Source of the DNA: Candidatus Bathyarchaeota archaeon
Lineage (GTDB): Archaea; Thermoproteota; Bathyarchaeia; 40CM-2-53-6
DNA: 64,000 nt
Reading direction: 5' to 3'
Assembly (NCBI GenBank): GCA_963733055.1
Contig: CAVTBR010000001.1
Span: forward strand, 384,001 to 448,000
The position numbers and the translations under genes were made by a program. The notes beneath the pieces were generated by a model, which saw nothing but the letters and a program-made list of their open reading frames with translations, was not told the DNA's origin and did no database searches. Positions 21,956 through 39,461 of this stretch are shown one piece after another. Numbering within the stretch: position 1 is the first letter of the stretch; each line of letters opens with the position of its first letter.

Positions 21956-22450
21956 TCATTTGTTCGTGCGTCCAATCGTTCTCTTGGAGGCAAGTATGAC
22001 TGCTTGAAGTTGTTGTTGATATCCGGTACATCTGCAAAGATTCCCTGAAAGGTAACGTTTGAGTTCGGGCTCTGTAATGTTAGGTTTCTCTTTCAATAAT
22101 GCCGAAGCGGTCATTATCATGCCGGGTATGCAGTATCCGCATTGGGCCGCGTCAAGTTCAATGAAAGCCTCCTGAACTGGATGAAGGGCCGTTTCACTTC
22201 CTAACCCTTCGATAGTTGTGATCTCATGCCCATCTAATTGCGGAGCAAGAACGAGGCATGAGGTGACAGGCTTTCCGTCCATTAGGACGGTACAGGCCCC
22301 ACATTCCCCCGTGTCGCAACCTTTCTTCACACCAGTAGTTCCCACTTCGTCATGAAGGAAATCACAGAGCGTAAGGTTCGGCGAAATCTTCCTGTGGAGG
22401 GGCGCTCCGTTGATCGTACATGTTACTTCGACTAGTGGTTCTGGCTTCAT
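21956..22450 (-). CDS. Xanthine dehydrogenase family [2Fe-2S] small subunit
   Basis: GCDTGECGACTV, QCGYCIPG, NLCRCTGY. Confidence 0.95.
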   Translation of the reverse strand: MKPEPLVEVTCTINGAPLHRKISPNLTLCDFLHDEVGTTGVKKGCDTGECGACTVLMDGKPVTSCLVLAPQLDGHEITTIEGLGSETALHPVQEAFIELDAAQCGYCIPGMIMTASALLKEKPNITEPELKRYLSGNLCRCTGYQQQLQAVILASKRTIGRTNK

Positions 22451-23346
22451 CGCTCGATTCCCCTCGCTATGTTCACCACTTTCTTGATGGACCTCTTCGT
22501 GAGAACTCGGACTAGTTGTCTTCTGTATTCGGCGCTCGCTCTCACATCGGTTATTGGCCTGCTTTCATCGCCAGCGGTCTTAGCTACAGCGTCGATTGCC
22601 TCCTCAGTGACCGGGCTTCCAGTAAGTTTCTCAGAACTTTTCTGTGCTAGGATTGGAGTGGGCGCAACGGCTCCGAGAGCAATTCTGCTAGTTCCGAACG
22701 CGTTGCCTTTCACTTCGGAGGCGACCGCGACTGATACTACGGATATTACGTTTTCATTGCGTTTTGCGGCTCGCATCCAGTAGCTAGAAACACCCTGGGC
22801 TTGTGGGATTTCGATGGAGGTGATCACCTCATCGGGATGGATTGCTGTCTTCTTTACGCCCGTGAAGAAATCTTCCACATGCATTGTTCTTTCCCCGCTT
22901 TTGGCTAGTAGGTTTACTTTCGCTGAGAGGGTAATGAGAGGGGGCGCGGTATCGGCGGCCGGTGAACCGTTGGCGAGATTCGCTCCGATGGTTCCGAGAT
23001 TTCTGATTTGGTAAGTTCCGACTTGTGATGCCGCCTCACTCAAAGCTCTAGCAAAACGTTTGACATGTGGGTTCAGTTCAAGTTCGGTGTAGGTTGTCAT
23101 TGCGCCGATTCGGAGACTGTTCTTGGTTAGGGTTATTCCGGATAATGCGGGCCGAAGGCGGTTGAGGTCGATTATTGTGTCGGGGTGGATTGAGCGGTGT
23201 TTTAGGGCTATTGTTAGGTCGGTTCCGCCCGCGATCAACCTTGCCTTTGAACCATACTGGGTTAGCGCCTCGAGTAGTTCGCCCATGTCGTTTGGTCTTA
23301 GGTAGTTGAATGGGGCGATTGGTGCTAGGTATTGGAACGATTTCAT
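22447..23346 (-). CDS. Xanthine dehydrogenase family FAD-binding medium subunit
   Basis: AGGTDL, IRNLGTIGANLANGSPAAD, DVRASAEYR. Confidence 0.95.
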   Translation of the reverse strand: MKSFQYLAPIAPFNYLRPNDMGELLEALTQYGSKARLIAGGTDLTIALKHRSIHPDTIIDLNRLRPALSGITLTKNSLRIGAMTTYTELELNPHVKRFARALSEAASQVGTYQIRNLGTIGANLANGSPAADTAPPLITLSAKVNLLAKSGERTMHVEDFFTGVKKTAIHPDEVITSIEIPQAQGVSSYWMRAAKRNENVISVVSVAVASEVKGNAFGTSRIALGAVAPTPILAQKSSEKLTGSPVTEEAIDAVAKTAGDESRPITDVRASAEYRRQLVRVLTKRSIKKVVNIARGIER

Positions 23347-25667
23347 GGGTTATCTCTTGCCGCTAGAGCCGTCTGAACTCGTTCTGGTGTGTAAGGGAAT
23401 GTTCGAATTGGAAATCCGAGGGCGTTGTAGACGGCGTTCCCGACCGCGGCTGCGACGGGCTCGATCGGCGGTTCGCCTATACCCTTCGCCCCAAACGGAC
23501 CGTTTTCTAAGTCAGGAGCTTCGACCGCGATTGGTTTGATTGTTGAAATGTCCGCAAAGGTTGGGATGTAGTAGTCGAGGAATCCTGGATTCATAATTTG
23601 CCCCTTATCGCCGATCAGAAGTTCCTCCATCAGTGCGTATCCGAGTCCTTGAACGACACCGCCGTAAATCTGGCTCTTGAATTGAGTTGGAAGGATTACA
23701 GTGCCAGAATCGTGAGCGGCGACATAGTTCAGCAAGTCGACCTTTCCAGTTTCTACGTCAACTTGAACTTCCGCGACGTGAACAGCCCATGAATACGACT
23801 TCCAAGGCGAACCTTCTCCCTTTGCTTTATCCCAGTTGATGCCCGTTGCACGGTTCCACGCTTCTTCCCTGAGGTCAAGTCCTCTGCGTCTGCATTCACG
23901 CACGAGTTCAGCGAAGGCCAACACTTTGCCGGACCCGCGCTTTATCGTATCGTCTTCCCAGACTAGGTCTTCTGGCTTGCAAGATAGGGACTCCGCGGCT
24001 ACTCGTGCCATTTTGTCTTTAAGCTGATTCGCCGCGAGATAGAGGGCCTTACCTCCCATGACCGTGCTTCGGGAAGCGACTGTGGGGCCCGAATCCAACG
24101 CAAGATTCGTATCCGTCATTTCGACGTTGATCTTCGTTTTCTTCAGACCCAGTACCTTGGCGACGATCTTCACGAAACCCGTGTAGATCCCTTGGCCATA
24201 CTCAGTCATGCCCGTGAATACTTGTACGGTCCCATCTTGGATCACTTGAACAGTGCCAGATCCAACATCTACGCCAAGCGGTCCTAGGCTGGTGGGATGA
24301 ATCATGCAGGCCATGCCTATACCACGACGCAGCTCGCCAACCTGTGGTCTCGAGTACAACTGCCTCTTGTTCTTCCATCCGGACTCCTCAGTAGCTTTTA
24401 GCAAACATTCTTCGAGCCCAACACTGCTGGACAGTAGTTGTCCGGTGGCGGTTTTTGATCCAACCCGCAGGATGTTATTGCGTCTGAATTCAAAGGGGTC
24501 CACGTTCAGTTGCTCAGCCGCCTCATCCATCTGGAGTTCTGCGGCGAAGAGGGCTTGAGGTTTACCGAAACCTCTGAATGCGCCCATCGGAACCTTATTC
24601 GTGTAAGCAACCGCCCCATCTACCTTCACGTTGGGGACATCGTACGCGCCCGAGACCAAGCACACCGACTGGAAAAGCACGCGTGAGCTTAGTGATGCGT
24701 AGGCTCCTCCGTCAAGCAAGACGTTCGCTTCAACCGCCGTAATCTTCCCCTTACGAGTAACTCCCATCTTTCTCTCAATTCTGATGGGGTGCCGTTTGGG
24801 GTGGAAAATTGTGGATTCTTCTCGCGAAAAGGCAAGAAGCGCAGGTTTCTTCGTGAGGTAAGTGGCCAGAGCAGCTCTGGCGCAAACCTCGTCCGGCGCG
24901 TCCTCCTTCCCGCCAAATGCTCCGCCCGTGGGCGCCAAGATAATTTGGACATTAGGAACAGCCTTTCCAAGAACAACCTTTACTGCTTTTTCTACGGCAA
25001 ATGGACATTGCATCGAGCCCAGGACAGCGACACCATCAGGTATCGGATAGGCTAGAGCGGCCTCAGTCTCAAGATATGCCTGCTCTTGGATAGGGGTCTG
25101 ATAGGTGCCATTAACCACAACGTCGGCTTCGCGAAATCCCTTCTCCACGTCCCCCTTTCTAACCAAGAAACTATCAAGAAAATTTCCTTGCTCGTGAATT
25201 TTCACTGCGCTTCTCTTCAGAGCTTCCTGAGGATCGTAGACTGCCGGGAGCGGTTCGTAATCCACTTTGACGGCTTCGACGCCGGTTTCAGCAGCTTCGG
25301 GAGTGGTAGCAATCACCATGGCTACGGTGTCGCCGACGAACCTCACCTTCTGATCGCAGAACAAGGGTTGGTCTTGAATGAAGAAACCTACCTCGTTAGC
25401 TCCCGGGACATCCTTACCAGTTACAACCCTGACCACGCCGCTAATCTTCTCAGCAGCCGAAAAGTCAATCCTCTTGACAATGGCGTGCGCGAGGGGTGAA
25501 CGAACAAGCCTCAGATAAAGAGCAGATTGATCAATCATGTCAGTAGTATACCTAGTCTTGCCGAGCACCTTCTGTAAAGCGTCAACACGTTTCTCCTCGT
25601 CAATTGGTCGTTCAACGCGCTCGAGAGTTTGCATGACTTCTTCACCGAATTTGAAACGCTCTATCAA
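23343..25667 (-). CDS. Xanthine dehydrogenase family molybdopterin-binding large subunit
   Basis: GGAFGGKED, AFRGFG, EYGQG, TVASRS, AKGIGEP; alternative ATG at 25634 preceded by GGTGA. Confidence 0.95.
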   Translation of the reverse strand: MIERFKFGEEVMQTLERVERPIDEEKRVDALQKVLGKTRYTTDMIDQSALYLRLVRSPLAHAIVKRIDFSAAEKISGVVRVVTGKDVPGANEVGFFIQDQPLFCDQKVRFVGDTVAMVIATTPEAAETGVEAVKVDYEPLPAVYDPQEALKRSAVKIHEQGNFLDSFLVRKGDVEKGFREADVVVNGTYQTPIQEQAYLETEAALAYPIPDGVAVLGSMQCPFAVEKAVKVVLGKAVPNVQIILAPTGGAFGGKEDAPDEVCARAALATYLTKKPALLAFSREESTIFHPKRHPIRIERKMGVTRKGKITAVEANVLLDGGAYASLSSRVLFQSVCLVSGAYDVPNVKVDGAVAYTNKVPMGAFRGFGKPQALFAAELQMDEAAEQLNVDPFEFRRNNILRVGSKTATGQLLSSSVGLEECLLKATEESGWKNKRQLYSRPQVGELRRGIGMACMIHPTSLGPLGVDVGSGTVQVIQDGTVQVFTGMTEYGQGIYTGFVKIVAKVLGLKKTKINVEMTDTNLALDSGPTVASRSTVMGGKALYLAANQLKDKMARVAAESLSCKPEDLVWEDDTIKRGSGKVLAFAELVRECRRRGLDLREEAWNRATGINWDKAKGEGSPWKSYSWAVHVAEVQVDVETGKVDLLNYVAAHDSGTVILPTQFKSQIYGGVVQGLGYALMEELLIGDKGQIMNPGFLDYYIPTFADISTIKPIAVEAPDLENGPFGAKGIGEPPIEPVAAAVGNAVYNALGFPIRTFPYTPERVQTALAARDNP

Positions 25668-25686
25668 ATTGTGTTCTAATTAACGT

Positions 25687-25710
25687 AACTCTAGAATATC
25701 TTCCAGAGTT
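25687..25710. promoter_or_regulatory. Imperfect inverted repeat in the divergent xdh/moaD promoter region (candidate operator)
   Basis: AACTCTAGAA-TATC-TTCCAGAGTT, 9/10 arm match. Confidence 0.35.
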
Positions 25711-25835
25711 GTTTGTTGTAACGCGCACATAATCGCATTCGAATGCCCGATGAAAAGAGGTGAAAGGTAAATGGCTCACCCCAACATCTAGAAGTCAACT
25801 AGTCATGAAGATGCATTAGACAGCAGCGTGCATTT

Positions 25836-26135
25836 GTGAAGGAGTCGGCGAGATTGAGTTCCATATCTGTCAACGTGACCGCGTTTGGTTTGTGGCAAAT
25901 GGTGTTAGGAGCCAAGAGGCAGCAAGTTGAGACGAATGGACGCACAGTTGGTGATCTTATTACGACTTTGAATGAGATGGCTTCAGGGAAATTGAAGGAG
26001 GAAATTATCGGCGACGACGGCAGATTGGATCCTAAATTCAAGATATTCGTAAACGGAAAGGAAAGCGCCACTCTGACGACCCAGTTGACTGATGGGGACG
26101 ATGTTGTTCTATTCGGTGTAATCGACGGTGGCTAA
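25836..26135 (+). CDS. MoaD/ThiS/SAMP ubiquitin-like sulfur carrier
   Basis: Beta-grasp pattern IFVNG...LTDGDDV, C-terminal GG. Confidence 0.88.
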   Translation: MKESARLSSISVNVTAFGLWQMVLGAKRQQVETNGRTVGDLITTLNEMASGKLKEEIIGDDGRLDPKFKIFVNGKESATLTTQLTDGDDVVLFGVIDGG

Positions 26136-26136
26136 C

Positions 26137-27093
26137 TTACGAGAAGGACGGTAGCAGCACCTTGCCACATTCTTCTATCTGCTCGTCTATCTCCGAGAGT
26201 TTGTTTACGGAGGGCATCAATACGAGTTCTTGCACGCCCGCCTTCGCGAATGATTCTACCGTGCTCGCGCAGTCTTTGGCTGTACCAATTATTGCGCTGC
26301 TCGGGGTGGCTTCGCTCCATTTGGGCAAATCGCAGTGTCCAGTGATGAATTCGTTCGTTACACGTTCGGCTTCCGCTCGACTTCGATCGATTCTTATGGG
26401 AACCATGTCACAGTTTCCAAATTTGCCCGCGTCCTTGCCTGATGATTTCGCGCTCTCAAGTACCTTTAACCAACTCTTCTCGAAGCTTTGCGGTGTGTAG
26501 AAGTACGATATCCATCCGTCGGCAAGCTTACCCACTCGACGCAACACCGAGTCAACGTATCCTCCCATCCAAAGGGGCGGATGAGGCTTCTGGACCGGCT
26601 TGGGTTCCATTGTTACATTTTTGAATGAATATTGGCCGTACTCGCCAGTCACCGCACTCTCCGTCCACAACCGCTTCATGATCTCAATATTCGTTTGAAG
26701 AGTTCGGCCGCGAGTGTCAAACGGGTACCCGCAAGCTTGGAACTCTCGTTCGTACCAACCAGCTGCAACTCCAAGAGTTATTCGTCCATCGCTCAGGTTG
26801 TCCAGTGTTGCTACTTGTTTGGTTAGGACCACTGGGTTTCTGATCGATAGAACCAATATGCCCGTTCCTAGCCTGACTCGTTCTGTTCTCGCCGCAACGG
26901 CGGATAGTATCGTCAACGAGTCGTGAACGGGAAAGACGCTCTTCGATCCAAGTAATATGTGGTCCCAAACCCAGACCGAAGAAAATCCTAATTCCTCGGC
27001 TCTCGTTGCGTGCTTAATTAGCGTCTTAGGGCTAATCCATTCTCCAGGTGCAACGTAGTTCTGTAACGTTAATCCGAACTTGACCGGTGGCAT
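26137..27093 (-). CDS. LLM-class flavin/F420-dependent oxidoreductase
   Basis: GFSSVWVWDH, LGTGILV, TLDNLSDGRITLGVAAGW, PPLWMGG. Confidence 0.9.
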   Translation of the reverse strand: MPPVKFGLTLQNYVAPGEWISPKTLIKHATRAEELGFSSVWVWDHILLGSKSVFPVHDSLTILSAVAARTERVRLGTGILVLSIRNPVVLTKQVATLDNLSDGRITLGVAAGWYEREFQACGYPFDTRGRTLQTNIEIMKRLWTESAVTGEYGQYSFKNVTMEPKPVQKPHPPLWMGGYVDSVLRRVGKLADGWISYFYTPQSFEKSWLKVLESAKSSGKDAGKFGNCDMVPIRIDRSRAEAERVTNEFITGHCDLPKWSEATPSSAIIGTAKDCASTVESFAKAGVQELVLMPSVNKLSEIDEQIEECGKVLLPSFS

Positions 27094-27109
27094 TTAATCG
27101 CCAAGCTCT

Positions 27110-28384
27110 TCAGGCGACTACTCCACACCAGTCCAGTATAGCCAGCGCATAGACTTTCGTTGCCGCTATCAGATCCTCTACTCTCACATATTCGTTGGTG
27201 GCATGCATTTGATCGGTGGGGCCGGGTCCGAATATTACGCTGGGTGTTTCACCATATTTGTTGAGGAACCTGATGTCTGCGGCGCCAGTCCTTCCGCTTA
27301 CGTTGGCGTCTTTACCCAAAATTTCGTTGTACGCTGATCTTACGCATTTCACAATCTCATGGTCAGTTGGTATCTCGGATGGCTCGGCGAAATATCCGGT
27401 GTACTTGACAGTTGGAGGATGCTCCTTCAACCAAGCGTCGCCCATTGCGGCCGCCTTCAAATGCTCAATGAACTGCTTCTTGACTACGTCAGAATCTTCC
27501 CCAGGGACAGTCGCCATGCTCCCCTTGAGGAGACATGAGTCTGGGAAAGCACTGGGGTAGGAACCGGACTGGAAGACTCCTACCAGACAAGGAATGGTTT
27601 CTCTAATATTCGGGTAAAGAGGGTGTCTGACCTTTCCCATGCGAATTTCTTGGAAGTTTGAAACGGCTTTCGTAACGGCGTAGCCCTTATCGATCGCATT
27701 AATTCCTTCCCATTGCGTTTGAATGCCTGCTGGTTTCCCTTTCACGTGGATCTCATACCATATCCGACCAATGGAGGCCGGTTGAACGCACATACTGCTA
27801 GTCTCGCCACTGATCCCCGCATCAGCCTTGTAGCCCCTTGTAACGCAGGCTAAGGTTCCGTTTCCGCTGAGTTCCTCATCTACCGTGTACTCTAGAATTA
27901 CATCCCCCTTCAACTTCACTCCGGACTCGATAATTGCGCTCATTGCCATACTATAACCAGCAACACCCGCCTTCATGTCGGAAGCCCCACGGCCGTGAAG
28001 TTTTCCATCCCGGATCGTAGCAATCCAGGGGTCGGTATTCCATGCGTCACTCGCTCCCGCAGGTATGACGTCGACGTGACCGTTGAAGAGCAATGAACGA
28101 CCTGACCCAGCCCCCTTGTACACGCCAACCACGTTCGGCCTATCCTTGTAATCCCTATCCACGGCGACAAAACCCGGATGTTTGCCAAGCTCTTCGATGT
28201 TGGGCTCCCAAACGTCAACCTTAACGCGCAAAGAATCCTTCAACCAGTTCGAGATGAAACTTTGAATGTCCTTCTCGTTTCCCGTCACACTGGGGAATGA
28301 GACCAGTTTGCGCAGGAAATTCACAACTTCCTCGCGGTTCTTCTCTATATACGAAGAGACCGTTTGCCGCGGATTGTTCATCAA
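27110..28384 (-). CDS. M20 ArgE/DapE-family deacylase/deformylase
   Basis: NGHVDV, GRGASDMKAG, VDEE, GPG...HATNE. Confidence 0.92.
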   Translation of the reverse strand: MMNNPRQTVSSYIEKNREEVVNFLRKLVSFPSVTGNEKDIQSFISNWLKDSLRVKVDVWEPNIEELGKHPGFVAVDRDYKDRPNVVGVYKGAGSGRSLLFNGHVDVIPAGASDAWNTDPWIATIRDGKLHGRGASDMKAGVAGYSMAMSAIIESGVKLKGDVILEYTVDEELSGNGTLACVTRGYKADAGISGETSSMCVQPASIGRIWYEIHVKGKPAGIQTQWEGINAIDKGYAVTKAVSNFQEIRMGKVRHPLYPNIRETIPCLVGVFQSGSYPSAFPDSCLLKGSMATVPGEDSDVVKKQFIEHLKAAAMGDAWLKEHPPTVKYTGYFAEPSEIPTDHEIVKCVRSAYNEILGKDANVSGRTGAADIRFLNKYGETPSVIFGPGPTDQMHATNEYVRVEDLIAATKVYALAILDWCGVVA

Positions 28385-28385
28385 C

Positions 28386-29168
28386 TCATCCTCCACGCAA
28401 CATGATTTTCTCAGGATCAATTGCTCTCAGAATTTTAAGTTCATGCTTACTTGGAGGAGTTATTCGTTGAAGCTGACTCGCTACCGAAAGGTGAAATCCT
28501 GTGTTCTCTAGGACATTATTGGGTTCAACGCCTTCTTGGAGAGCTTCCAACCTCAACGCTTTCGTGGTTGAATCGAACCCTAAGATGCCCAAGTCGGTTA
28601 CAACCTTGTAAGGTCCCCCGAAAATTAGCCCTGCTTCACGCCTCGAATCTCCACCGTCTAAGAATCCGGGACTCGTTACGAAATCGACCTTATCTACGAA
28701 CCTGCGTTTCTCGTGCATCACACAGATAATTACGCGGGTTGCTGAGGCCGCAATATCATTTGCCCCTCCACTTCCGGGCAACCTAACCTTGGGTGCTTCG
28801 AAATCTCCGATTACGGATGTGTTGAGGTTTCCGAATTTATCTATCTGAGCGGCTCCAAGCAACCCGTAATCCAAGAAACCCCGTTGCTGATACAGGAACA
28901 TGTCCGTGATGCTGCAAAACGCCATTGCCTTCCTACCTGCGCGTGCCTCATTGGTTGACAACGGCATTTTACCCGGCTTCAACTGGGGGGCAATCACCCC
29001 GCCTTCGAACATAATCGATAGATTCGGGCTTTGTGTGAATTGCGCAAGCAAGGCGGCGGCCATCGGTAGACCGATTCCGACAAAGATGGTCTTCCTGTCT
29101 TCCAGTAACCTTGCCGTCGTTACGGCGATCAATTCTGACTTCGAATATTCGAGCTTACGTGATGACAT
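28386..29168 (-). CDS. Family I CoA-transferase beta subunit (glutaconate/3-oxoadipate type)
   Basis: FVGIGLP, FEGG (catalytic Glu position), GAAQIDKFGNLN, LPGSGGAND. Confidence 0.92.
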   Translation of the reverse strand: MSSRKLEYSKSELIAVTTARLLEDRKTIFVGIGLPMAAALLAQFTQSPNLSIMFEGGVIAPQLKPGKMPLSTNEARAGRKAMAFCSITDMFLYQQRGFLDYGLLGAAQIDKFGNLNTSVIGDFEAPKVRLPGSGGANDIAASATRVIICVMHEKRRFVDKVDFVTSPGFLDGGDSRREAGLIFGGPYKVVTDLGILGFDSTTKALRLEALQEGVEPNNVLENTGFHLSVASQLQRITPPSKHELKILRAIDPEKIMLRGG

Positions 29169-30129: not shown

Positions 30130-30236
30130 CGTGATCCTCCGGTTGCTTGCGAGTTATTCGAGTGGAAATATCCTTATCGGTATTTCATCGGCACCGTTAT
30201 ATCCTAATTGCAAATAACGCAAATCTGGAAATCTTC

Positions 30237-31544: not shown

Positions 31545-31574
31545 GAAACGCTAACTACACATATAGCTTACCTC

Positions 31575-31592
31575 CCTTCTTCCTTTTTTTTC
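31575..31592 (+). terminator. Oligo-T intra-operon terminator after the binding-protein gene
   Basis: Pyrimidine tract ending in T8 between SBP stop and permease start. Confidence 0.45.
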
Positions 31593-31603
31593 GTGTGTGT
31601 GAC

Positions 31604-32503
31604 GTGCCAGCCTCCGCGTTCCAAGGGCTCTATCTCTCGATTGTTTCAGGAATCAGCTACGGACTCATAATCAGTCTGCTGGCGGGCGGGCTTTCACTCA
31701 TCTACGGAGTGATGAACAACGTTAACACCTCGCACGGGGCTTTTTACATGCTGGGCGGATTTCTCACATTTTTTGCTGTAAGTTCTCTTCACCTACCCAT
31801 CGTGCTCAGCATAATTTTCGCTTTCACGGCTGCTTTCGGATTGGGACTAGTATTTCTCTTCACTTTAGTTCCGAGAAGAATGTGGGTGTCGAGCGACCCT
31901 GATTCTCAAAATATCGTAATGATTTTGTTCTTGGCCCTTGCGCAGGTTCTACAACGAGGAGCCTTCATTGTGTATGGTGGAGGATCCGTGGCTGTTCCAA
32001 CCATTCTATTCGGAAGCCTCTCGTTACCGGGAGATCTATTCATTTCCTACCAGACCCTGATTTCTATTGCAATATCGATCCTCTGCTACGTTGGATTATT
32101 CATCTTCCTTCGGGATAGCAAGATAGGCAAAGCAATTCGGGCGTTTTCGCAAGACAGAGAATTAGCTGAGGCCATGGGGGTTCGAGTTGGCACAATCGCT
32201 TTGATGTCCTTCGGCCTGGGAGTGTCGTTAGCTGCGCTGAGCGGCGCTCTTCTTTCCTCAATTTATAGTGTCACCGCTGCGACTGGTTGGAACGAACTTG
32301 TAATCGCGTTCGTGATAGTGACATTCGGAGGAATCGGAAGCATATCAGGAAGTTTTCTCGGCGGCTTAGTGTATGGGATAATCTACTCAATCACGCAGTA
32401 TTACCTCCCTGCCTACTCTTTTGTTATCGCACTGGTCCTCATCTACATCGTACTGGTCACAAAACCTACGGGGATACTGGGCGAGATTATTGAAAGGGCC
32501 TGA
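31604..32503 (+). CDS. LivH-like ABC permease
   Basis: GLSLIYGVMNNVNTSHGAFYM, GKAIRA, FGGIGS. Confidence 0.9.
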   Translation: MPASAFQGLYLSIVSGISYGLIISLLAGGLSLIYGVMNNVNTSHGAFYMLGGFLTFFAVSSLHLPIVLSIIFAFTAAFGLGLVFLFTLVPRRMWVSSDPDSQNIVMILFLALAQVLQRGAFIVYGGGSVAVPTILFGSLSLPGDLFISYQTLISIAISILCYVGLFIFLRDSKIGKAIRAFSQDRELAEAMGVRVGTIALMSFGLGVSLAALSGALLSSIYSVTAATGWNELVIAFVIVTFGGIGSISGSFLGGLVYGIIYSITQYYLPAYSFVIALVLIYIVLVTKPTGILGEIIERA

Positions 32504-33467
32504 CCACGCTTCCTACATCTCATGGGCCAAGGGTCTCAACCTAAGAGACATCAATTTCCTAATACTCTTGGTTTCCATCATACCTAGCACAATCATCTTC
32601 CTGGCTGACAAGCCTTACCTGAAATTCATCATGATGTACTTCTTTGCGTACGCAATCTACACAGCAAGTTGGGATCTACTCTATAGTTACTCGGGTCAGT
32701 TAAGCCTCGGTCAAGCTTTGCCGTTCGGCCTAGGAGCCTTCTTCACCATCATGCTTACTCAAATCGTTAAGCTGCCATTGGTGCCCTCTGCGATCGTCGG
32801 AACATTAGGCGCGGCAGCCGTTGGGGGAAGTATCGGGGCAACAACAATTAGGCTCAAACCGGGATACCAAGGGATAGCGATCCTCCTCTTCTCACAAGTT
32901 CTCTATTGGCTTTCTCTAATAGCCTACGGGGAAGAAGGAGTATCCATATTCAGCGAGACTCCCCCCAGCGAGACTACGATATACATTACGGGATTCGCGC
33001 TTTTCGTTTTGGCGATGCTTGCAATATACATCATTCAGAATTCTACCTACAAACTCAAGCTGCTCGCAATAAAGGGAGACAACCTCGCTGCAGAAGTATG
33101 CGGGATAAACGTTCCCGTACACAAAGCCATAGTTTTCTTCCTTAGCGCCTTCTTCGCGGGACTGGCTGGAACATATTACGGAATTTTCACCTCGCACGCA
33201 GACTTTAGCATCTTCGCAGTTCCGAATTCGTTCCTTCCAATTGGAATGGCGATCGTAGGAGGAGTCGGTTTCTTAGGCGGACCCATAATCGGTAGCGCCG
33301 TCGTTAGTTTGATAATCAATATCCTTCCGGTCTGGTATTCACTCGCGATAACCTACTTCGCATACGGAATCGTAGTCATCATCATCTTGAAGGTGAGACC
33401 CACCGGTATCTTGGGCCTACTCAAGCAAATTGCGCGAAAGGAGAAATCAAAAGTTGCTAAGAGTTGA
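32490..33467 (+). CDS. LivM-like ABC permease
   Basis: YSGQLSLGQ, AAEVCGIN, IVGGVG...GPIIG. Confidence 0.9.
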   Translation: MKGPDHASYISWAKGLNLRDINFLILLVSIIPSTIIFLADKPYLKFIMMYFFAYAIYTASWDLLYSYSGQLSLGQALPFGLGAFFTIMLTQIVKLPLVPSAIVGTLGAAAVGGSIGATTIRLKPGYQGIAILLFSQVLYWLSLIAYGEEGVSIFSETPPSETTIYITGFALFVLAMLAIYIIQNSTYKLKLLAIKGDNLAAEVCGINVPVHKAIVFFLSAFFAGLAGTYYGIFTSHADFSIFAVPNSFLPIGMAIVGGVGFLGGPIIGSAVVSLIINILPVWYSLAITYFAYGIVVIIILKVRPTGILGLLKQIARKEKSKVAKS

Positions 33468-34146
33468 AGCCTTGGAAAAGCGGTTCGGGGGCCTGACAGC
33501 GCTCTCGAAGATCGATATCAAAGTCGATAAGGGAAAGATCTACGGACTTATTGGACCGAATGGATCAGGCAAGACCACGCTGCTTAACCTCGTCACAGGT
33601 GTCCTCAAACCAACGCGGGGCAAAATCTACGTGAAAGACATCGATGTGACCGGGAAACCGCCCCACACAATAACACGTATGGGCGTGAGTAGAACATTTC
33701 AGATTCCTAGAATATTCCCGGAATTAACTGTCGAAGAAAACATGCTCGCAATCAAGCATGAGTCTTTTTCTAGGGATAGACTAGATGACGTGTTGAAGCT
33801 AGTCGATCTATCCGCGGTCAGAGCGAATAAAGCGAAATCTTTGGGGTACGGGCAACGGAAAGACCTTGAGCTAGCCAGAGCAATCGTACTCGATACCGAA
33901 CTTCTATTCCTAGACGAACCAATGGCTGGCCTCCACGGCTCCACTATAGGAGTAATTTCGAAGCATATTCGCACGCTGAACAAAGAAATGGGCAAAACCC
34001 TGGTAATCATTGAGCATCACTTAGAAGAGCTAATGCAGCTTACAGATTACGTGTTCGTTCTCGACCACGGCGAAAAAATAGAGGAAGGAGAACCAGACGT
34101 AATCAGAAGCAGCAAAGCCGTCCACCGAGCCTATTTCGGAGCGTGA
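33454..34146 (+). CDS. LivG-like ABC ATPase
   Basis: GPNGSGKT, RTFQ, LDEPMAG, IEH. Confidence 0.92.
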   Translation: MLRVEALEKRFGGLTALSKIDIKVDKGKIYGLIGPNGSGKTTLLNLVTGVLKPTRGKIYVKDIDVTGKPPHTITRMGVSRTFQIPRIFPELTVEENMLAIKHESFSRDRLDDVLKLVDLSAVRANKAKSLGYGQRKDLELARAIVLDTELLFLDEPMAGLHGSTIGVISKHIRTLNKEMGKTLVIIEHHLEELMQLTDYVFVLDHGEKIEEGEPDVIRSSKAVHRAYFGA

Positions 34147-34152
34147 ACTTAC

Positions 34153-34851
34153 CTGCTGAAAGTCGAGAATATTCGCGCTGGGTACGCAGGGGCTGAAGTA
34201 TTACACTCAGTAAGTATCGAAGCCCGAGACAAGGAGATAACTATCCTCCTAGGCCCGAACGGCGCAGGTAAGTCAACACTATTGAAAACAATCATTGGCT
34301 TAATCTCTCCGACTGGCGGAAAACTCTACGCTAACGATAAGGATATCACGAGAGCCAGCACGACCGATATCATCAAACTAGGAATCTCGTACGTTCCACA
34401 AGGCGCCTCACTCTTCCCAAGCATGACGGTGAGGGAAAATCTCGAGATGGGCTACTACACTCTGTCCGACAAGCAAGAACTGAAAAAGAAGATCTCAGAA
34501 ACATGCGACATCTTCCCAATTCTCAAAGACCGAATGCACCAGAAAGCTGGGCTCATGAGCGGCGGGGAAAGGCAGATGCTTGCCATCGGAAGAGCCTTAG
34601 TTTCATCCCCCAAACTAATACTCCTCGACGAACCCTCATCCGGACTCGACGTCGGAAAACAAGCAATCATCTTCGACAAACTGATCCAATTAAACAAAGA
34701 AGGAATAGCCATTCTACTAGTCGAACAAAGCGTGGAGAAAGCAACCAAGATAGCCCATCAGGCATACCTTTTGTCCAGCGGGATTCTCAAATTCTCTGGC
34801 GAAGCCTCAAAACTAACAGAGAACATGCTCTCCAGCGTCTTCGGCAAATAA
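34153..34851 (+). CDS. LivF-like ABC ATPase (start non-canonical or disturbed)
   Basis: Walker A GPNGAGKS lies in frame upstream of the track start (34282); MSGGERQ, LDEPS, VEQ. Confidence 0.88.
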   Translation: MLKVENIRAGYAGAEVLHSVSIEARDKEITILLGPNGAGKSTLLKTIIGLISPTGGKLYANDKDITRASTTDIIKLGISYVPQGASLFPSMTVRENLEMGYYTLSDKQELKKKISETCDIFPILKDRMHQKAGLMSGGERQMLAIGRALVSSPKLILLDEPSSGLDVGKQAIIFDKLIQLNKEGIAILLVEQSVEKATKIAHQAYLLSSGILKFSGEASKLTENMLSSVFGK

Positions 34852-34938: not shown

Positions 34939-36340
34939 TCAGGCGCGGATATGATTGTTTTCTTCAGCTCGGATGAAGCGTCCTTCTCCTGGAGCCCCGA
35001 CGATTACCCCCTCATTCATGACTAATTTGCCACGTACGAAAGTTGCCACACACTTACCTCTAACGTCCCTTCCGTCGAAAAGAAATGTCTCTCTTGCTTT
35101 AGTTTCGAGCTCATCACGTTTCAATGTCCACTTCTTTTGAAGATTCACTACCGCGAAATCGGCATCGGATCCAACTGTGATCGTACCTTTTCTGGGATAG
35201 AGGCCGAAGATCTCTGCCGGCCTGGTGGAACATAACCTTACAACATCGAGGAGAGACAGTCGTTTGTTATACACCTCTGTTAGCATCAGTGGTAGTCTTG
35301 TTTCGACTCCGGGTGTTCCAGGTGGTGCCTTCCAAATATCATCCTCCCCTTCTTCTTTCTCTTTTTCCGAGTGAGGCGCGTGGTCGCTTACCACGATGTC
35401 AATAGTTCCGTCAACTAGACCATCCCACAGCGCCTGACGGTCAGATTCGTCTCGCGGCGGCGGATTGAATTTCGCATTTGGCCCATTTCTTTTCAGTGCG
35501 TCTTTTGTGAGCAGAAGATAGTGCGGGCAGGTTTCAGCTGTGGCTGTGGACCCATTCTTTCTACAGAGGCGAATTAGAGAAACCGCCTCTTCGGTGCTAA
35601 TGTGAAGTAGGTGAATTCGAGCCTTGAGCGCGTCCGAGATTATCAGTGCTTCTGAAACCGCCAACGCCTCGGTAAACTGTGGCCGAGAATCATAGTGGGC
35701 AGGAGCGTCGCGCCTTCCCTCTCGTTGGAGGCGATCGGTCAGAAAGCGAATAGTGTCATCATGTTCGGCGTGTAAGCAAAGGAGCTTGCGCGTCCCTTTG
35801 ACTTGCTCCATGACACGATATAGGGAAGCCGCTTCAGTGACAAAGGTGCCCGCGTATCTCGCGAATTCTCTCGGGAGGGGGAGCTACCATGTAGGTTTTG
35901 AAAGCTATAGCCCCAACCTCGGCGAGCCCGGCAAGCTCCGACAAATTATCGACTCCAGCTCCAGCATAGAGCGCGAAATCCACAATCGCCTTTGGTTGTA
36001 CTATCTTGATTTTCTCAAGGAATCGCTGCCTTGTTGTGACTACCGGTTGGGTGGTCGGCATATCAAATACCGTTGTCACGCCTCCCTTTGCTGCAGATCG
36101 CGTCCCAGAAAGAAAGTCCTCTTTCTGAGTCATTCCAGGGTCGCGGAAGTGGACATGCGTATCTATTAGTCCCGGAAGTACGTGCAACCCAGTGGCGTCA
36201 AATTCATCATCAGCCTGAATATTGACCCTAGTAGAAATCGAGATTACCTTTCCTTTATCGACAAGAATTGATGCCTTTAGAAGCCCATCTCTGGCGACGA
36301 CGGTTCCTCCTCGAATCAAGAGGTCCGGCATTTCGACCAC
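34939..36340 (-). CDS. Cyclic amidohydrolase (dihydroorotase/allantoinase family), split by +1 frameshift near 35855-35885
   Basis: DTHVHFRDPG, AFKTYM in 5' frame; HAE, HIS, KFNPP, SDHAPH in 3' frame; joined reading RE-YAGTFVTEAASLYRVMEQ. Confidence 0.88.
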
Positions 36341-36357
36341 ACGGATTGTACCGCATG

Positions 36358-36379
36358 TAACAGGACTTATACCCTGTTA
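36358..36379. promoter_or_regulatory. Inverted repeat enclosing the putative TATA box of the amidohydrolase gene
   Basis: TAACAGG-ACTTATAC-CCTGTTA; minus-strand TATAAG lies 26-31 bp upstream of 36340. Confidence 0.4.
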
Positions 36380-36461
36380 TTCATCAACACGAGAATTCGA
36401 GCCTCAGAGAATCAAAAACAGAACTTATTTGCACGGAAACTTAGCCAACGATTGATACATT

Positions 36462-37562
36462 TTGTCACTAACTGGACGTGACTTGGTTTCGGTGCTGGAT
36501 TTTGACAAACGAGAACTTGAGACAATATTCAGAACGGCCGACTCTATGCAACGGTACACTAGGAAATGCCGGAATCAACTAAAAGACAATGTGATGGCGA
36601 CAATTTTCTTTGAGCCAAGTACGAGAACACGGCTTAGTTTTGAGACCGCGATGCATCGCTTAGGGGGATCGGTGATTGGATTTGCAGAACCGGGTATCTC
36701 TAGTGTTGCCAAGGGTGAGACTTTGGCGGATACGATTAGAATGGTCGAAGCGTATTCAGACGTGATTGTGCTTAGGCATAAGATTGAAGGATCTGCAAAA
36801 TTCGCAGGTGAAATAGCGAGTGTCCCGGTTCTCAACGGCGGTGACGGTTCTCAACATCACCCAAGCCAAACCCTCACCGACCTTTACACTATCAGAAAGG
36901 AGTTTGGCAAGATTGACGGTTGCAACATTCTACTCATGGGAGACCTAAACCACACAAGGTCAGCCTCATCCCTCGCCTACGGGCTGGGCCACTACCAAGG
37001 AATCAGACTTTCTTTTGTATCCCCTGATAGTCTCAGAATGCGACCCGAGGTTACTGACTACCTCGATAGAAAAAGCGTAAAGTATGAAGAGAGTGAAGAC
37101 CCTTCGCGTTTCATCGATGAAGCTGACGTAATTTATGTGACAAGGTTACAGAAAGAACGTTTCACAGATCCCAACCAGGCAGAAGCCCTCAAAGCGAGCT
37201 ACGTTCTAACGAAGGAACTCCTGAAACATGCGCCAAAAGACGCCATTGTCCTACACCACCTTCCAAGAATAGAGGAAATACCACTAGAAATTGACTACAC
37301 GCCGAACGCTAGATATTTCGAACAGGCCGCGAACGGCGTTCCAGTAAGAATGGCTTTTCTTTACCTATCAGTTTACCGTTCAAAGTACCGCCCCTTGAAG
37401 AAACGTCAACCGCCGTCAAGTACGAGTGGACTGCGGCGGTGTGCGAACCCAAACTGTATCTCTAATCAACCACGTGAGCCGATTGCGCCCGAGATGAATG
37501 AGGTCACCAGCAAAGGCGAACGAATATTCCAATGTGGATACTGTGGTCGATACACGAAGTAA
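36462..37562 (+). CDS. pyrB: Aspartate carbamoyltransferase-like catalytic chain fused to a PyrI-type C-terminal Zn domain
   Basis: FFEPSTRTRLSF, KGETLADT, HPSQ, TRLQKERF; C-terminus CANPNCISN...FQCGYC. Confidence 0.88.
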   Translation: MSLTGRDLVSVLDFDKRELETIFRTADSMQRYTRKCRNQLKDNVMATIFFEPSTRTRLSFETAMHRLGGSVIGFAEPGISSVAKGETLADTIRMVEAYSDVIVLRHKIEGSAKFAGEIASVPVLNGGDGSQHHPSQTLTDLYTIRKEFGKIDGCNILLMGDLNHTRSASSLAYGLGHYQGIRLSFVSPDSLRMRPEVTDYLDRKSVKYEESEDPSRFIDEADVIYVTRLQKERFTDPNQAEALKASYVLTKELLKHAPKDAIVLHHLPRIEEIPLEIDYTPNARYFEQAANGVPVRMAFLYLSVYRSKYRPLKKRQPPSSTSGLRRCANPNCISNQPREPIAPEMNEVTSKGERIFQCGYCGRYTK

Positions 37563-37581
37563 ATGACATTAGCCTTGCGAG

Positions 37582-38802
37582 TCAGGTGTAGAGTGTGTTG
37601 ACCAGCTGGTTTTCCGCAAGCACTTTTCCACGCTTAATGACATACCGAGGCATGTCCCCGAATCTGAGACAATCAGCCGCGTTCGAATAGTTCAATATGT
37701 TTAGGTCCGCTTTACAACCTTCTTCGACTCCATATTCGCTAAGCCGAAGCATGAGAGCCGCGTTGTACGTGACCATCCTAGGAATCTGTTCAAACAGCTC
37801 CCGGGAGTTGAGTTGACCTCCATAAGCGAGTAACCAGCCGTTTCGTAGAGCGCTGAAGTCTCCGAAGGGGTTGAAAGGGTCAACCATATTATCGATTCCG
37901 TAGGTGACATTCACGCCAGCGTTCAACAGTTCCATTACTCTAGTAATGCCCCTAGGGATTGGCGGCGGATGTTGACCTCCGCTCGTCATCATTGTACAAG
38001 GATTCGTTATGATATTCACCTTAGCACGCTTAATCGAACTGATAATTTTGCTCGCGTAATCGTCACTATAATGAGACAAAGCGATATTATGTGCTGAGGA
38101 CGCCCTGCCTTCATAGTGAGTACTGACAACTTTTGCAATGAAATACTCCAGGTTTCTTCCGGAAGATATTACATCATTGTGAACGTCAACATCAACGTCC
38201 TTCTCTTTCGCGATTGAGAAAACCTTATCCAAGTGTTCTTTTGAGTCATCTGCAGATTTCTCAGCTTCAGGAAGTCCGCCTATAACATCTGCCCCAGACT
38301 CCAATGCTTTGTAGAGCAATTCCTCCGTTCCCTCGTGGCATATGATTCCTTCCTGCGGATTGGCGACGATTTGTATATCCAAGAGAGGAGAATATTCGCG
38401 ACGAAGCTCGTTCAACGCATCAAGGCCTGTTAACCCCACGACGGGATCGATATCCACATGGCTTCTGATTACGGTCACTCCATTCTTTAGAGCGAGTGGC
38501 AGCACGCGTTTTATACGCTGTTTTATGTTGCTGACTGTGAAAGACTCTTTTGCCTTCTTGATGATTTCGCGCGCCTGTCCGATCGAGGAGGCATACCCAA
38601 ATTCTTCCGATAACAAGACTTTGTCAAGATGTATATGCGGTTCAACGAAGGTCGGCAGAACTAAACAGCTGTTTGCATCTATCTCCTTGTCTGCTCCAAA
38701 CTGCAAATCTGAAGCTATTTTGGATATTTTGTCACCTTCAATCAAGACCGAAACGGGTTCCTCGTGACCGGTAGCCTTTGCGTTGCGAATGACAATCGAC
38801 AC
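37582..38802 (-). CDS. Cytosine deaminase (CodA)-like amidohydrolase
   Basis: EPHIHLDK, IRSHVD, IGGLP, GIDNMVDPFNPFG. Confidence 0.85.
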   Translation of the reverse strand: MSIVIRNAKATGHEEPVSVLIEGDKISKIASDLQFGADKEIDANSCLVLPTFVEPHIHLDKVLLSEEFGYASSIGQAREIIKKAKESFTVSNIKQRIKRVLPLALKNGVTVIRSHVDIDPVVGLTGLDALNELRREYSPLLDIQIVANPQEGIICHEGTEELLYKALESGADVIGGLPEAEKSADDSKEHLDKVFSIAKEKDVDVDVHNDVISSGRNLEYFIAKVVSTHYEGRASSAHNIALSHYSDDYASKIISSIKRAKVNIITNPCTMMTSGGQHPPPIPRGITRVMELLNAGVNVTYGIDNMVDPFNPFGDFSALRNGWLLAYGGQLNSRELFEQIPRMVTYNAALMLRLSEYGVEEGCKADLNILNYSNAADCLRFGDMPRYVIKRGKVLAENQLVNTLYT

Positions 38803-38822
38803 CGCGGGAGTCCCTCTACCGG

Positions 38823-39461
38823 CTAATGGTTGACAGTCGTGGAATTTGGTCTTGTTCCAGTCTTCATTTCATGAAAGGTTTGAATGATCTTTGTGGACTG
38901 TGTGACGGATCCTTTTTGGAGCCTCTCCACGGCCGCAAGGGCGGCTTCGTGAGCTTCTCGGCTTGATCCCGCCACACAATCCTTAGGGATTCTAACTGTG
39001 AAGTCAAATTGATGGGCGTCCATGGCGGTAAGGTAGACGCACACGTCGGTGGCTACTCCCGTTATGACCAAGGTGTCCACAGCCAATCCTTTGAGTAGAA
39101 TAGCCAAGTCGGTGCCGAAGAAAGCGCTGTATCGTCTTTTGTTTATCACATAGTCCGATTCTTTTGGTGCCAACTCTTCCACGATCTCGGCACCCCTAGT
39201 TCCCTCAACACAATGAAGCGCCTCATTACCATCCAGTTCTCTTCCGAAATCGACCTTCTGAGGACGATGCACTTCCCTTGTGTATATGATCGGGATACCC
39301 GAGCGACGAGCCTCTACCGACAGTTCCTTAATCCTTGAGACTACCCTGGGCGCGTCCTGACATGGAACCGCGCCATCTTCATCAACGAAATCATGCTGCA
39401 CATCCACTATAAGCAACGCAAGTGTTGCCAATTTCCAATTCCCAGTTAGATCCCAAATCAC
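38823..39461 (-). CDS. Isochorismatase-family cysteine amidohydrolase
   Basis: VDVQHDF, KRRYSAF, GVATDVCV (D-K-C triad). Confidence 0.9.
   Translation of the reverse strand: MIWDLTGNWKLATLALLIVDVQHDFVDEDGAVPCQDAPRVVSRIKELSVEARRSGIPIIYTREVHRPQKVDFGRELDGNEALHCVEGTRGAEIVEELAPKESDYVINKRRYSAFFGTDLAILLKGLAVDTLVITGVATDVCVYLTAMDAHQFDFTVRIPKDCVAGSSREAHEAALAAVERLQKGSVTQSTKIIQTFHEMKTGTRPNSTTVNH

Follow-up and report, generated by a model that had tools for sequence, protein, structure and literature searches.

Positions 21956-39461 of the 64-kb stretch of DNA analysed here (hereafter the window; contig CAVTBR010000001.1, G000:C1:384001-448000) hold a cluster of about 19 neighbouring genes from a Bathyarchaeia archaeon of peat or soil. 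We tentatively propose that this cluster is one functional island that serves to import and break down a heterocyclic acid or ureide rich in nitrogen, a reading that is plausible if not secure. The island would comprise three modules. Module A consists of a two-subunit CoA-transferase, a luciferase-like monooxygenase-family (LLM) oxidoreductase, an M20 deacylase, a molybdenum enzyme trimer of the xanthine dehydrogenase (XDH) family and a MoaD-like protein; module B is an ABC importer; and module C combines an isochorismatase-type hydrolase, a CodA-like amidohydrolase, a cyclic amidohydrolase (the ring hydrolase) and a paralogue of aspartate carbamoyltransferase (ATCase).

The evidence that carries this proposal is comparative. 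Modules A, B and C all lie within about 25 kb in four Bathyarchaeia genomes (the source genome G000, together with G001, G003 and G004), arranged in three gene orders. G000 and G001 share the order XDH, MoaD, LLM-M20-CoA-transferase, ABC importer, ring hydrolase, ATCase and CodA-isochorismatase. In G003 the order is ABC importer, CoA-transferase-M20-LLM, MoaD, isochorismatase-CodA, ATCase, ring hydrolase and XDH, and in G004 it is CodA, ATCase, ring hydrolase, ABC importer, XDH, a gap, MoaD and LLM-M20-CoA-transferase. Such grouping is not due to chance, and because the linkage outlasts rearrangement it provides the strongest evidence for functional coupling and argues that the cluster is one functional unit. 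The first-pass annotation had described these genes as a catabolic cluster for N-heterocycles or ureides, and the synteny survey found them co-conserved across the four genomes and three orders. G002 retains modules A and B and lacks module C alone, that is, the block of isochorismatase, CodA-like, ATCase and allantoinase-like genes.

The island is rare and patchily distributed. In a sample of 200 further genomes of the class, three of which are from the same genus, none encoded a CoA-transferase A more than 40% identical to that of the cluster and none encoded an ATCase of the cluster type (best match, 55% identical), and the island was not found in the three genomes of the same genus. The gene set was probably imported into this archaeon; GC content is 0.48-0.52 across the cluster, and its composition shows no anomaly. 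A literature search found no paper describing this gene set, in agreement with the first-pass annotation, which had not recognized it as a described pathway.

Gene content of the island and its proposed route

The source genome spans 2.88 Mb in three contigs, is 96% complete and contains archaeal small-subunit rRNA (1452 bits). Genes were assigned from an open reading frame (ORF) listing combined with Pfam and NCBIfam scans that applied the model cut-offs, and the families of the cluster are as follows.

21956-22450, minus strand: XDH-family [2Fe-2S] small subunit (PF01799, 108 bits; under all NCBIfam equivalog cut-offs; 4-nt overlap with the next gene)
22447-23346, minus strand: XDH-family FAD-binding medium subunit (PF00941, 170 bits; PF03450, 86.6 bits)
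23343-25667, minus strand: XDH-family molybdopterin large subunit, predicted not to be of the xanthine type (PF20256, PF02738, PF01315)
25836-26135, plus strand: MoaD/ThiS/SAMP-like small protein, 99 aa (PF02597, 26.3 bits; cut-off 22.5)
26137-27093, minus strand: F420-type LLM oxidoreductase (TIGR03619, 197.4 bits; cut-off 166.9)
27110-28420, minus strand: M20 ArgE/DapE-family deacylase (TIGR01910, 293 bits; cut-off 217.6)
28386-29168, minus strand: glutaconate-CoA-transferase-like subunit B (GctB 1POI_B, 155.6 bits)
29155-30129, minus strand: glutaconate-CoA-transferase-like subunit A (GctA 1POI_A, 175.7 bits)
30147-31544, plus strand: substrate-binding protein of a HAAT/Liv-type ABC importer, membrane-anchored (PF13458, 170 bits)
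31493-32503 and 32421-33467, plus strand: two LivH/LivM-type permeases (PF02653, 104.8 and 103.2 bits)
33430-34146, plus strand: livG-like ABC ATPase (PF00005)
34147-34851, plus strand: livF-like ABC ATPase, start frame broken (PF00005)
34939-36340, minus strand: allantoinase/L-hydantoinase-like cyclic amidohydrolase, frameshifted at 35858 (split Pfam and NCBIfam matches)
36462-37562, plus strand: ATCase paralogue fused to the PyrI zinc domain only (TIGR00670, 345 bits, cut-off 237; PF02748, 41.6 bits)
37582-38802, minus strand: CodA/AtzC-like amidohydrolase (E. coli cytosine deaminase, 209.7 bits; AtzC, 138 bits)
38823-39461, minus strand: isochorismatase-family cysteine amidohydrolase (PF00857, 166 bits)

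The XDH trimer, LLM enzyme, M20 deacylase, CoA-transferase, Liv-type importer, amidohydrolases and ATCase had all been reported as contiguous, and Pfam and NCBIfam bear out each of them. The reported MoaD/SAMP gene is likewise present, although its placement had to be moved to the plus strand at 25836-26135; a 90-aa minus-strand ORF at 25799-26071 is the antisense shadow of the plus-strand gene. The MoaD-like protein ends in Gly-Gly and scores just under the cut-offs of the specific models (moaD_arch, 46.4 versus a cut-off of 49.5; SAMP1, 42.1 versus 60). Its gene lies antisense between two minus-strand units, and it is likewise antisense and directly after the LLM gene in loci L016, L017 and L018.

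Within each strand block the genes abut or overlap, and a 470-bp gap parts the LLM gene from the Mo subunit gene on the minus strand. The importer genes on the plus strand diverge from the CoA-transferase genes on the minus strand, and the isochorismatase-type gene stands 21 nt upstream of the CodA-like gene, the two forming a minus-strand unit.

In the order of steps that we infer, the compound would be taken up through the HAAT-type importer, hydroxylated on the ring by the Mo enzyme and reduced by the LLM enzyme with F420H2. The two amidohydrolase-superfamily enzymes would then open the ring hydrolytically, and the isochorismatase-type and M20 hydrolases would cleave amide or ureido groups. 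The ATCase, working in reverse, would phosphorolyse an N-carbamoyl-L-aspartate-like product to aspartate and carbamoyl phosphate, the latter of which could yield ATP through the carbamate kinase encoded at 13938-14921 (TIGR00746, 441 bits; cut-off 358). The CoA-transferase would activate either a carboxylate substrate or a dicarboxylate product. What the sequences show is the family of each enzyme, the retained catalytic motifs, the co-conservation across rearranged loci and the standing of the ATCase as a paralogue; the substrate, the sequence of steps and the reverse working of the ATCase are proposals.

The CoA-transferase and LLM genes form the conserved core of module A. A locus survey anchored on CoA-transferase A, in which a 14-sequence alignment led to 80 loci with at most 10 kb on each side and the cluster proteins were mapped onto these loci by tblastn, left 67 loci informative for downstream gene order (at least 2.5 kb downstream). 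Subunit A, subunit B and the LLM gene followed one another on one strand in 58 of these 67 loci, which belong to soil bacteria and archaea. Subunit A orthologues were 71-91% identical in loci from four Bathyarchaeia metagenome-assembled genomes; beyond these, the closest relatives came not from other Bathyarchaeia but from Aigarchaeota-type archaea (50-56% identity), and those of Rokubacteria, Methylomirabilota, Dehalococcoidia, Binatia and others were 46-53% identical. An XDH-family large subunit was found in 25 of the 80 loci (all eight with an archaeal label and 17 of the other 72), an isochorismatase-like gene in 24 and ABC ATPases in about 34-35; M20 genes occurred in six of the eight archaeal-labelled loci and two of the 72 others. 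Bacterial partners of the core are variable and include cysteine-synthase-like and threonine-synthase-like pyridoxal-phosphate enzymes, an arylmalonate-decarboxylase/EutA-like protein, DUF6282, an alpha/beta hydrolase and a DinB-like protein. The literature search turned up no published function for the CoA-transferase/LLM pair.

The transferase shares its two-subunit family I architecture with GctAB of Acidaminococcus fermentans (1POI), AibAB and IpdAB. The Glu of the GctB motif IVESG, presumably the catalytic residue, aligns with the Glu of MFEGG in the cluster's subunit B, whereas AibB chains, which are deposited as GctB-family proteins and which we take to be decarboxylase relatives, have no Glu there; the beta-subunit Glu is what would be expected of a family I CoA-transferase of the GctAB type. 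Transferases of this type act on C5 dicarboxylates. The genomic context differs from that of GctAB in that no 2-hydroxyglutaryl-CoA dehydratase lies nearby and in the constant pairing with an F420-type LLM enzyme, which is no part of the hydroxyglutarate pathway.

The LLM enzyme had been suggested to be possibly of the F420 type, and its score on TIGR03619 is consistent with this assignment, as is the presence of F420 biosynthesis in the genome, represented by cofD (328 bits; cut-off 257). Of the solved chains, those that come closest to the LLM enzyme belong to a luciferase-like monooxygenase (7BIP, 77.4 bits) and to F420-dependent Mer (76.8 bits), and an Atlas look-up returned generic TIGR03619/LLM clusters only.

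The Mo subunit scored 534 (cut-off 780) and 522 (cut-off 916) against the XdhA models and remained under all xanthine dehydrogenase cut-offs. Its best single PDB chain was the alpha subunit of 4-hydroxybenzoyl-CoA reductase (327.5 bits), an enzyme that presumably acts on a CoA ester, and the scores against the L and M chains of nicotinate dehydrogenase (277 + 188 bits) sum to more than this best single chain. Aligned with bovine xanthine oxidase, whose residue numbering we assume here, it keeps the equivalents of Glu802, Arg912/Phe914 and Glu1261, carries Gln in place of Arg880, which we take to be the xanthine-binding position, and is gapped at Phe1009/Thr1010. Because of the Gln, the gap and the scores under cut-off, the subunit is predicted to be a hydroxylase of the XDH family that is not of the xanthine type; a xanthine dehydrogenase would be expected to reach the equivalog score and to hold Arg880 together with Glu802 and Glu1261. 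In six of the surveyed loci (L045, L053, L076, L082, L090 and L094, from Dehalococcoidia, Binatia and Syntrophobacterales) the Mo large subunit matches as two adjacent pieces, a division reminiscent of Eubacterium barkeri nicotinate dehydrogenase with its L and M chains. The source genome also holds at least four further XDH-family subunit sets (C1:484.8-492.7 kb, C2:57-61 kb and C3:319-323 kb), two of them in tandem 37-45 kb past the end of the window, in a region that also contains several amidohydrolase genes (C1:454-481 kb).

The M20 protein reached 140.5 bits on the YgeY model (cut-off 321), with metal and Glu-Glu motifs, presumably catalytic, visible in its sequence. For the frameshifted ring hydrolase we used the intact orthologue at L015:1420-2814, which is 82-85% identical to the two window pieces, scores 390.5 bits on the AllB allantoinase/cyclic amidohydrolase model TIGR03178 (cut-off 357.85) and also passes the pyrC_multi domain model. 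Among PDB chains, L-hydantoinase 1GKR (294 bits) and allantoinase 3HM7 (270.6 bits) ranked above dihydroorotases (at most 220 bits), which places the enzyme, as far as its sequence tells, nearer L-hydantoinase and allantoinase than dihydroorotase. Two intact pyrC-type genes lie elsewhere in G000, and the cluster gene is accordingly not the only pyrC-type copy, which fits the first-pass reading.

The CodA-like protein scored 259 bits on cytosine deaminase models (cut-off 438). It keeps the presumed metal ligands (the His-His pair and the equivalents of His214, His246 and Asp313) and the Gln156 equivalent, and has Val at Glu217, which we take to be the catalytic Glu of the deaminase, and Asn at Asp314. 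Because the Glu217 position is Val and the Asp314 position Asn, the protein is unlikely to be a cytosine deaminase, for which the model score, the metal ligands and Glu217 would be expected together. The best NCBIfam matches of the isochorismatase-type protein were biuret amidohydrolase (95.9 bits) and RutB (67.6 bits), all far under cut-off, and Asp/Lys/Cys motifs that are presumably catalytic are visible in its sequence.

The substrate-binding protein of the importer has a hydrophobic N-terminal helix followed by a Ser/Thr-rich linker. It scored 93.6 bits on UrtA and 70.1 on the archaeal urea-binding model versus 55.3 on the branched-chain amino-acid (LivJ-type) model. The expectation that it is not of the branched-chain type thus stands as far as the ranking goes, but every one of these scores is far under its cut-off.

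The ATCase paralogue

In the ATCase of the cluster, the C-terminal 50 residues form a four-Cys PyrI zinc domain and the allosteric domain is absent. The only match to the PyrI model in G000 (28.1 bits) falls in this C-terminus and covers model positions 93-143 of 150. The catalytic part scores 314 bits against the Pyrococcus abyssi enzyme (1ML4), and its motifs read STRT, HPSQ, HHLP and RLQ, with STRTR and RLQKER kept. Table 1 of Barba 2013 (PMC4016543) gives S[TR]RT, HP[ST]Q, HP[LG]P and RXQ as the motif set of a genuine ATCase. By these marks the cluster enzyme, in which the carbamoyl-phosphate motifs are retained, has the score, S[TR]RT, HP[ST]Q and RXQ of a genuine PyrB; it departs from one in having HHLP in place of HP[LG]P and in lacking a separate archaeal PyrI chain. 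Nor is it, by the same table, a pseudo-ATCase, in which RXQ is replaced and HPLA, H[ST]LP or HSLP is found. Because STRT, HPSQ and the ATCase-specific RXQ are retained, the enzyme probably binds aspartate. Altered specificity read from HHLP was considered and rejected, since, of the 117 sequences of 290 aa or longer that were examined, 67 are unfused archaeal ATCases with the same variant.

The main fused forms group together. A search of 5.8 billion proteins placed the PyrI zinc domain in 27 of the best 120 clusters listed. A quick tree was built from 82 rows, taking in every fused form, one in three of the unfused forms and 28 rows from Bathyarchaeia, with sequences under 290 aa dropped. In this tree the window ATCase fell in a 21-row clade of 20 fused forms and one fragment, with a Shimodaira-Hasegawa approximate likelihood-ratio (SH-aLRT) support of 99. 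This clade is sister to HHLP-type unfused ATCases and stands apart from the canonical Bathyarchaeia PyrB, of which 26 rows form a separate clade. G001, G003 and G004 each encode a canonical pyrB (about 315-389 bits, 306-307 aa) in addition to the fused cluster type (about 347-351 bits), G001 with pyrI beside the canonical gene, and G002, which has no module C, encodes canonical pyrB only. The cluster ATCase is a distinct paralogue. Compared with canonical archaeal PyrB-PyrI as in P. abyssi, it shares the score and the STRTR, HPSQ and RLQKER motifs and differs in its fused four-Cys zinc domain, the lack of a regulatory chain and its separate clade. A metagenome scan for fused-ATCase loci yielded relatives of at most 56% identity and no orthologue of the cluster type, and an AlphaFold model of the fused protein was poor (mean predicted local distance difference test score, 62.3).

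The first-pass annotation had asked whether canonical pyrB and pyrI exist separately from the cluster genes. A canonical pyrB does in the relatives G001, G003 and G004, with pyrI seen beside it in G001, but neither gene was found in the source assembly, where dihydroorotate dehydrogenase, pyrE and the two pyrC-type genes are present and the rest of the de novo pyrimidine pathway was found. The canonical pyrBI neighbourhood of G001 (G001:C8, L109), flanks included, has no counterpart in the G000 assembly. Either canonical pyrBI lies in the missing 4% of the assembly, or the fused ATCase is also biosynthetic here.

Weighing the island against described pathways and rival readings

Several observations weigh against the island reading. 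A sequence by itself names no substrate. The carbamate kinase lies 22 kb upstream, in another module, flanked by two OTC-like (ornithine carbamoyltransferase-like) enzymes and near genes resembling ornithine fermentation, and the carbamoyltransferase pair taken to mark this module is far from the cluster or on another contig in G002-G004. The cluster ATCase passes the biosynthetic equivalog, is the sole ATCase over cut-off in G000, an assembly with no separate pyrI, and may serve biosynthesis in this organism. Bacterial XDH-like subunits share only 27-40% identity with that of the cluster and are perhaps not its orthologues. What weakens the island reading most is the wide occurrence of the CoA-transferase/LLM core in bacteria without module C, so that module A may have a substrate of its own.

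The carbamate kinase itself (13938-14921) sits between divergent carbamoyltransferases resembling OTC or AOTC (acetylornithine carbamoyltransferase) at 12829-13899 (minus) and 15036-16070 (plus). A similar pair of carbamoyltransferase-like matches, about 1.2 kb apart, occurs in G001-G004, unlinked to the cluster in G002-G004, and in G005 the two matches lie about 5 kb apart. We rejected this module as a dedicated partner of the cluster, given its lack of linkage in G002-G004 and its company of ornithine-fermentation-like genes.

A more specific form of the island reading would be an undescribed anaerobic route from an imported N-heterocyclic carboxylate, through hydroxylation by the non-xanthine Mo enzyme, F420H2-dependent reduction and ring opening, to N-carbamoyl-L-aspartate. 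An unregulated 'catabolic ATCase', left with only the zinc domain of its one-time regulatory partner, would run backwards, so that carbon and nitrogen of the pyrimidine type would yield ATP by way of carbamoyl phosphate, and the core would constitute a new conserved two-enzyme step that many uncultured soil bacteria share. We consider this unlikely, although catabolic ornithine carbamoyltransferase offers an analogue for such an enzyme.

It is also rather doubtful, if conceivable, that module A is a self-contained route for a (hetero)aromatic carboxylate, handled as a CoA thioester: after CoA transfer, the Mo enzyme would hydroxylate the compound, F420H2 would reduce it and a hydrolytic step would release a C5 dicarboxylate, leaving module C to act on another ureide. 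The furoyl-CoA, thiophene-2-carbonyl-CoA and nicotinate routes resemble such a scheme. Its attractions are the similarity of the Mo subunit to 4-hydroxybenzoyl-CoA reductase alpha, or, when chains are summed, to nicotinate dehydrogenase, the C5 dicarboxylate substrates of GctAB-type transferases, the wide occurrence of the core without module C, with or without XDH, and the nicotinate-dehydrogenase-like split of the large subunit in the Dehalococcoidia, Binatia and Syntrophobacterales loci. It leaves unexplained why module C stays linked to module A across three rearrangements, and no route-specific CoA ligase, thioesterase or ring-cleaving enzyme was identified.

Among described systems the closest is the cluster for reductive breakdown of urate and 2,8-dioxopurine in E. 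coli and Clostridia, reported to comprise XdhD-YgfM, YgfK/UacX, SsnA, HyuA, YgeW/UacY, YqeA, YgeY and YgeX (PMC12507026; 10.1101/2025.04.24.650524). The island would share the logic of the pathway described there, in which a Mo enzyme and a ring reductase act together with two amidohydrolases that open the rings, a carbamoyltransferase feeding carbamate kinase and an M20 enzyme. An archaeal variant would equate the Mo enzyme with XdhD, the LLM enzyme with YgfK, the CodA-like protein with SsnA, the hydantoinase-like protein with HyuA, the ATCase with YgeW and the M20 enzyme with YgeY, with the carbamate kinase elsewhere in the genome. In favour of this variant, the families correspond almost one to one to those of the E. 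coli and C. difficile clusters, and Chloroflexota SsnA clusters are described with a putative F420 'luciferase family' enzyme in place of YgfK (PMC12507026); carbamate kinase and cofD are present in G000, and the M20 enzyme gains 140.5 bits on the YgeY model. For the island reading, the same paper supplies a precedent for a catabolic carbamoyltransferase and carbamate kinase in purine breakdown.

We nevertheless regard this variant as improbable, and the archaeal reductive purine route that the first-pass annotation had listed first is best retained as an analogy. SsnA (TIGR03314), which serves Li et al. 2025 (PMC12507026) as marker gene, has no match over cut-off in G000, where the best gene reaches 398.7 versus 455.5 bits and lies 476 kb from the window. 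It was likewise over cut-off in none of five bacterial genomes that carry the core, and it is not among the 25 best families of the cluster's CodA-like protein. The SsnA-like gene, at C1:860 kb, was examined as the seat of a second purine cluster and discarded, its neighbours being an IF-2B/NUDIX protein, a GDSL hydrolase and a major facilitator superfamily transporter. It is more likely a deaminase of the methylthioadenosine/S-adenosylhomocysteine type, because its IF-2B/NUDIX neighbour looks like methylthioribose-1-phosphate isomerase. No YgeX (TIGR01747) was found over cut-off in G000 (best 49.2 bits versus 274), as already remarked from the window alone. For the ring reductase (YgfK or UacX, PF01180), a single gene of G000 passes the PF01180 cut-off; it is at C1:882596, a long way from the cluster, and no search was aimed at YgfK itself. 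The F420-type LLM could take its place, as proposed for Chloroflexota. The ATCase reaches 40.9-42.3 bits on YgeW models with cut-offs of 453-500 and keeps the aspartate-type RXQ, the Arg880 equivalent is Gln, and the CoA-transferase has no role in such a route. Set against the reductive urate pathway as published, the cluster differs in having no SsnA, no YgeX, an ATCase-type enzyme rather than YgeW and no Arg880 equivalent, and it adds a GctAB-type CoA-transferase, an isochorismatase-type hydrolase and an ABC importer, with the carbamate kinase outside the cluster.

The pairing of an ATCase paralogue with an allantoinase-type hydrolase has its own precedent in Rubrobacter xylanophilus, where an allantoinase, a pseudo-ATCase (ureidoglycine carbamoyltransferase) and a carbamate kinase are described as a module (PMC4016543). 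The carbamoyltransferase there is phosphorolytic and yields carbamoyl phosphate. According to the same source, the Rubrobacter pseudo-ATCases have lost RXQ (AIA, GXS/GX[SC] or VXP) and carry HPLA, H[ST]LP or HSLP, whereas the cluster ATCase has RLQ and HHLP; the cluster enzyme differs further in its fused PyrI zinc domain, and no uricase-type genes were seen in the cluster.

A reading in which the cluster is not one system at all, the ATCase and cyclic amidohydrolase being ordinary pyrB and pyrC beside an unrelated catabolic operon and transporter, seems to us quite improbable. It draws on the ATCase passing TIGR00670 as the sole ATCase of an assembly that has the remaining de novo pathway and no separate pyrI, and on the retention of every substrate motif except for HPLP, replaced by the HHLP common to the 67 unfused archaeal ATCases. 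Yet the relatives carry canonical pyrB as well, beside pyrI in G001, and G002, without module C, has the canonical gene only; no cluster-type ATCase occurs in the 200 sampled class genomes, and the linkage outlasts three rearrangements. The hydrolase is also more hydantoinase- or allantoinase-like than dihydroorotase-like, with two other pyrC-type genes in the genome, and an assembly gap is possible, given that the G001 pyrBI neighbourhood is absent from a 96%-complete assembly.

Least probable, and by our estimate very remote, is an oxidative pyrimidine route from cytosine through uracil and barbiturate, with ring opening, to malonate and malonyl-CoA, the second suggestion of the first-pass annotation: a CodA-like protein, a Mo hydroxylase, a cyclic amidohydrolase, an amidohydrolase weakly like biuret hydrolase and RutB, and a CoA-transferase are all present, but the CodA-like protein has Val at Glu217, the ATCase, LLM and M20 enzymes are left without a role, the transferase is of the GctAB type rather than a known malonate transferase type, and the AtzD/barbiturase family (PF09663) has no match in G000, a weak negative in that 14 control genomes were equally silent.

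Bathyarchaeia abound in anoxic soils, peat and sediments, and tests have reached very little of their metabolism. If the island reading is correct, a dedicated mobile island for nitrogen-rich rings would bear on organic nitrogen recycling in peat and would carry the recently solved scheme by which purines are broken down anaerobically over to archaea, where it would draw on the chemistry of F420 and CoA. Ways of breaking down N-heterocycles and ureides are known; the literature search found neither a pathway with this enzyme combination nor a function for the core pair, and the ATCase architecture is unusual; an ATCase that retains only the zinc domain of PyrI would be a natural experiment on ATCase architecture. 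Solving the CoA-transferase/F420-LLM pair would in addition annotate loci in Rokubacteria, Methylomirabilota, Dehalococcoidia, Binatia and Aigarchaeota-type archaea.

Sequence quality and surroundings of the cluster

An extra base at 35858 splits the cyclic amidohydrolase into ORFs of 168 and 290 aa, whereas the gene is intact in relatives (464 aa in the 91%-related locus L015 and 456 aa in L017). A short-read contig from run X1 (181 nt, depth 3.6), the sole contig at that place, lacks the extra base and is otherwise identical. Because the L015 and L017 genes are intact and the short-read contig lacks the base, the frameshift is likely an assembly error, for which a single low-depth contig is thin support. 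In livF, no ATG, GTG or TTG start precedes the Walker A motif, which lies within the stop-to-stop frame; compared with L015, one extra base is present at about 34152, just after a GTG that overlaps the livG stop. Compared with a 90%-identical relative, a stretch of 1.7 kb thus has its reading frames broken by two insertions of one base each, at 34152 and 35858, read evidence bearing on 35858 only, and the assembly may contain further indel errors of the same kind. The CodA-like gene of G004 (L114/L231, G004:C16) is present as two ORFs of 309 and 134 aa, which may reflect a frameshift or an assembly error. No tRNA was found in the 64-kb window, and a promoter and terminator scan with bacterial-type models, which are not applicable to archaea, returned fewer sites than in shuffled sequence.

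Upstream, the region 1764-9662 encodes a FixC-like FAD oxidoreductase, the beta and alpha subunits of electron transfer flavoprotein, an HdrD-like CCG/4Fe-4S membrane protein, a 2,4-diaminopentanoate-dehydrogenase-like protein and an aminomutase/aminotransferase-like protein. This set is syntenic in G001 and looks like ornithine or amino-acid fermentation. Immediately before the cluster, about 4 kb (17991-21951) give way to about 0.7 kb in G001, a 90%-identical relative; in the window these 4 kb contain an isochorismatase-like gene (18222-18812), of which an 82%-identical copy lies at 63376-63960 of the window, an unassigned 327-aa ORF and a cis-3-hydroxy-L-proline dehydratase (610 bits; cut-off 500).

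Downstream, the region 39606-47264 holds a small zinc-ribbon-like ORF, a DNA methyltransferase with weak likeness to BREX PglX (40954-42291) and a 758-aa HATPase_c protein (44988-47264), which suggests a defence or mobile region at the right edge of the cluster. Farther along, an anhydro-MurNAc kinase, a beta-lactamase-family protein, a SIS-domain protein, a YhfX-like racemase-fold protein and an amidohydrolase (55079-62391) look like a set for the use of cell-wall sugars or amino sugars.

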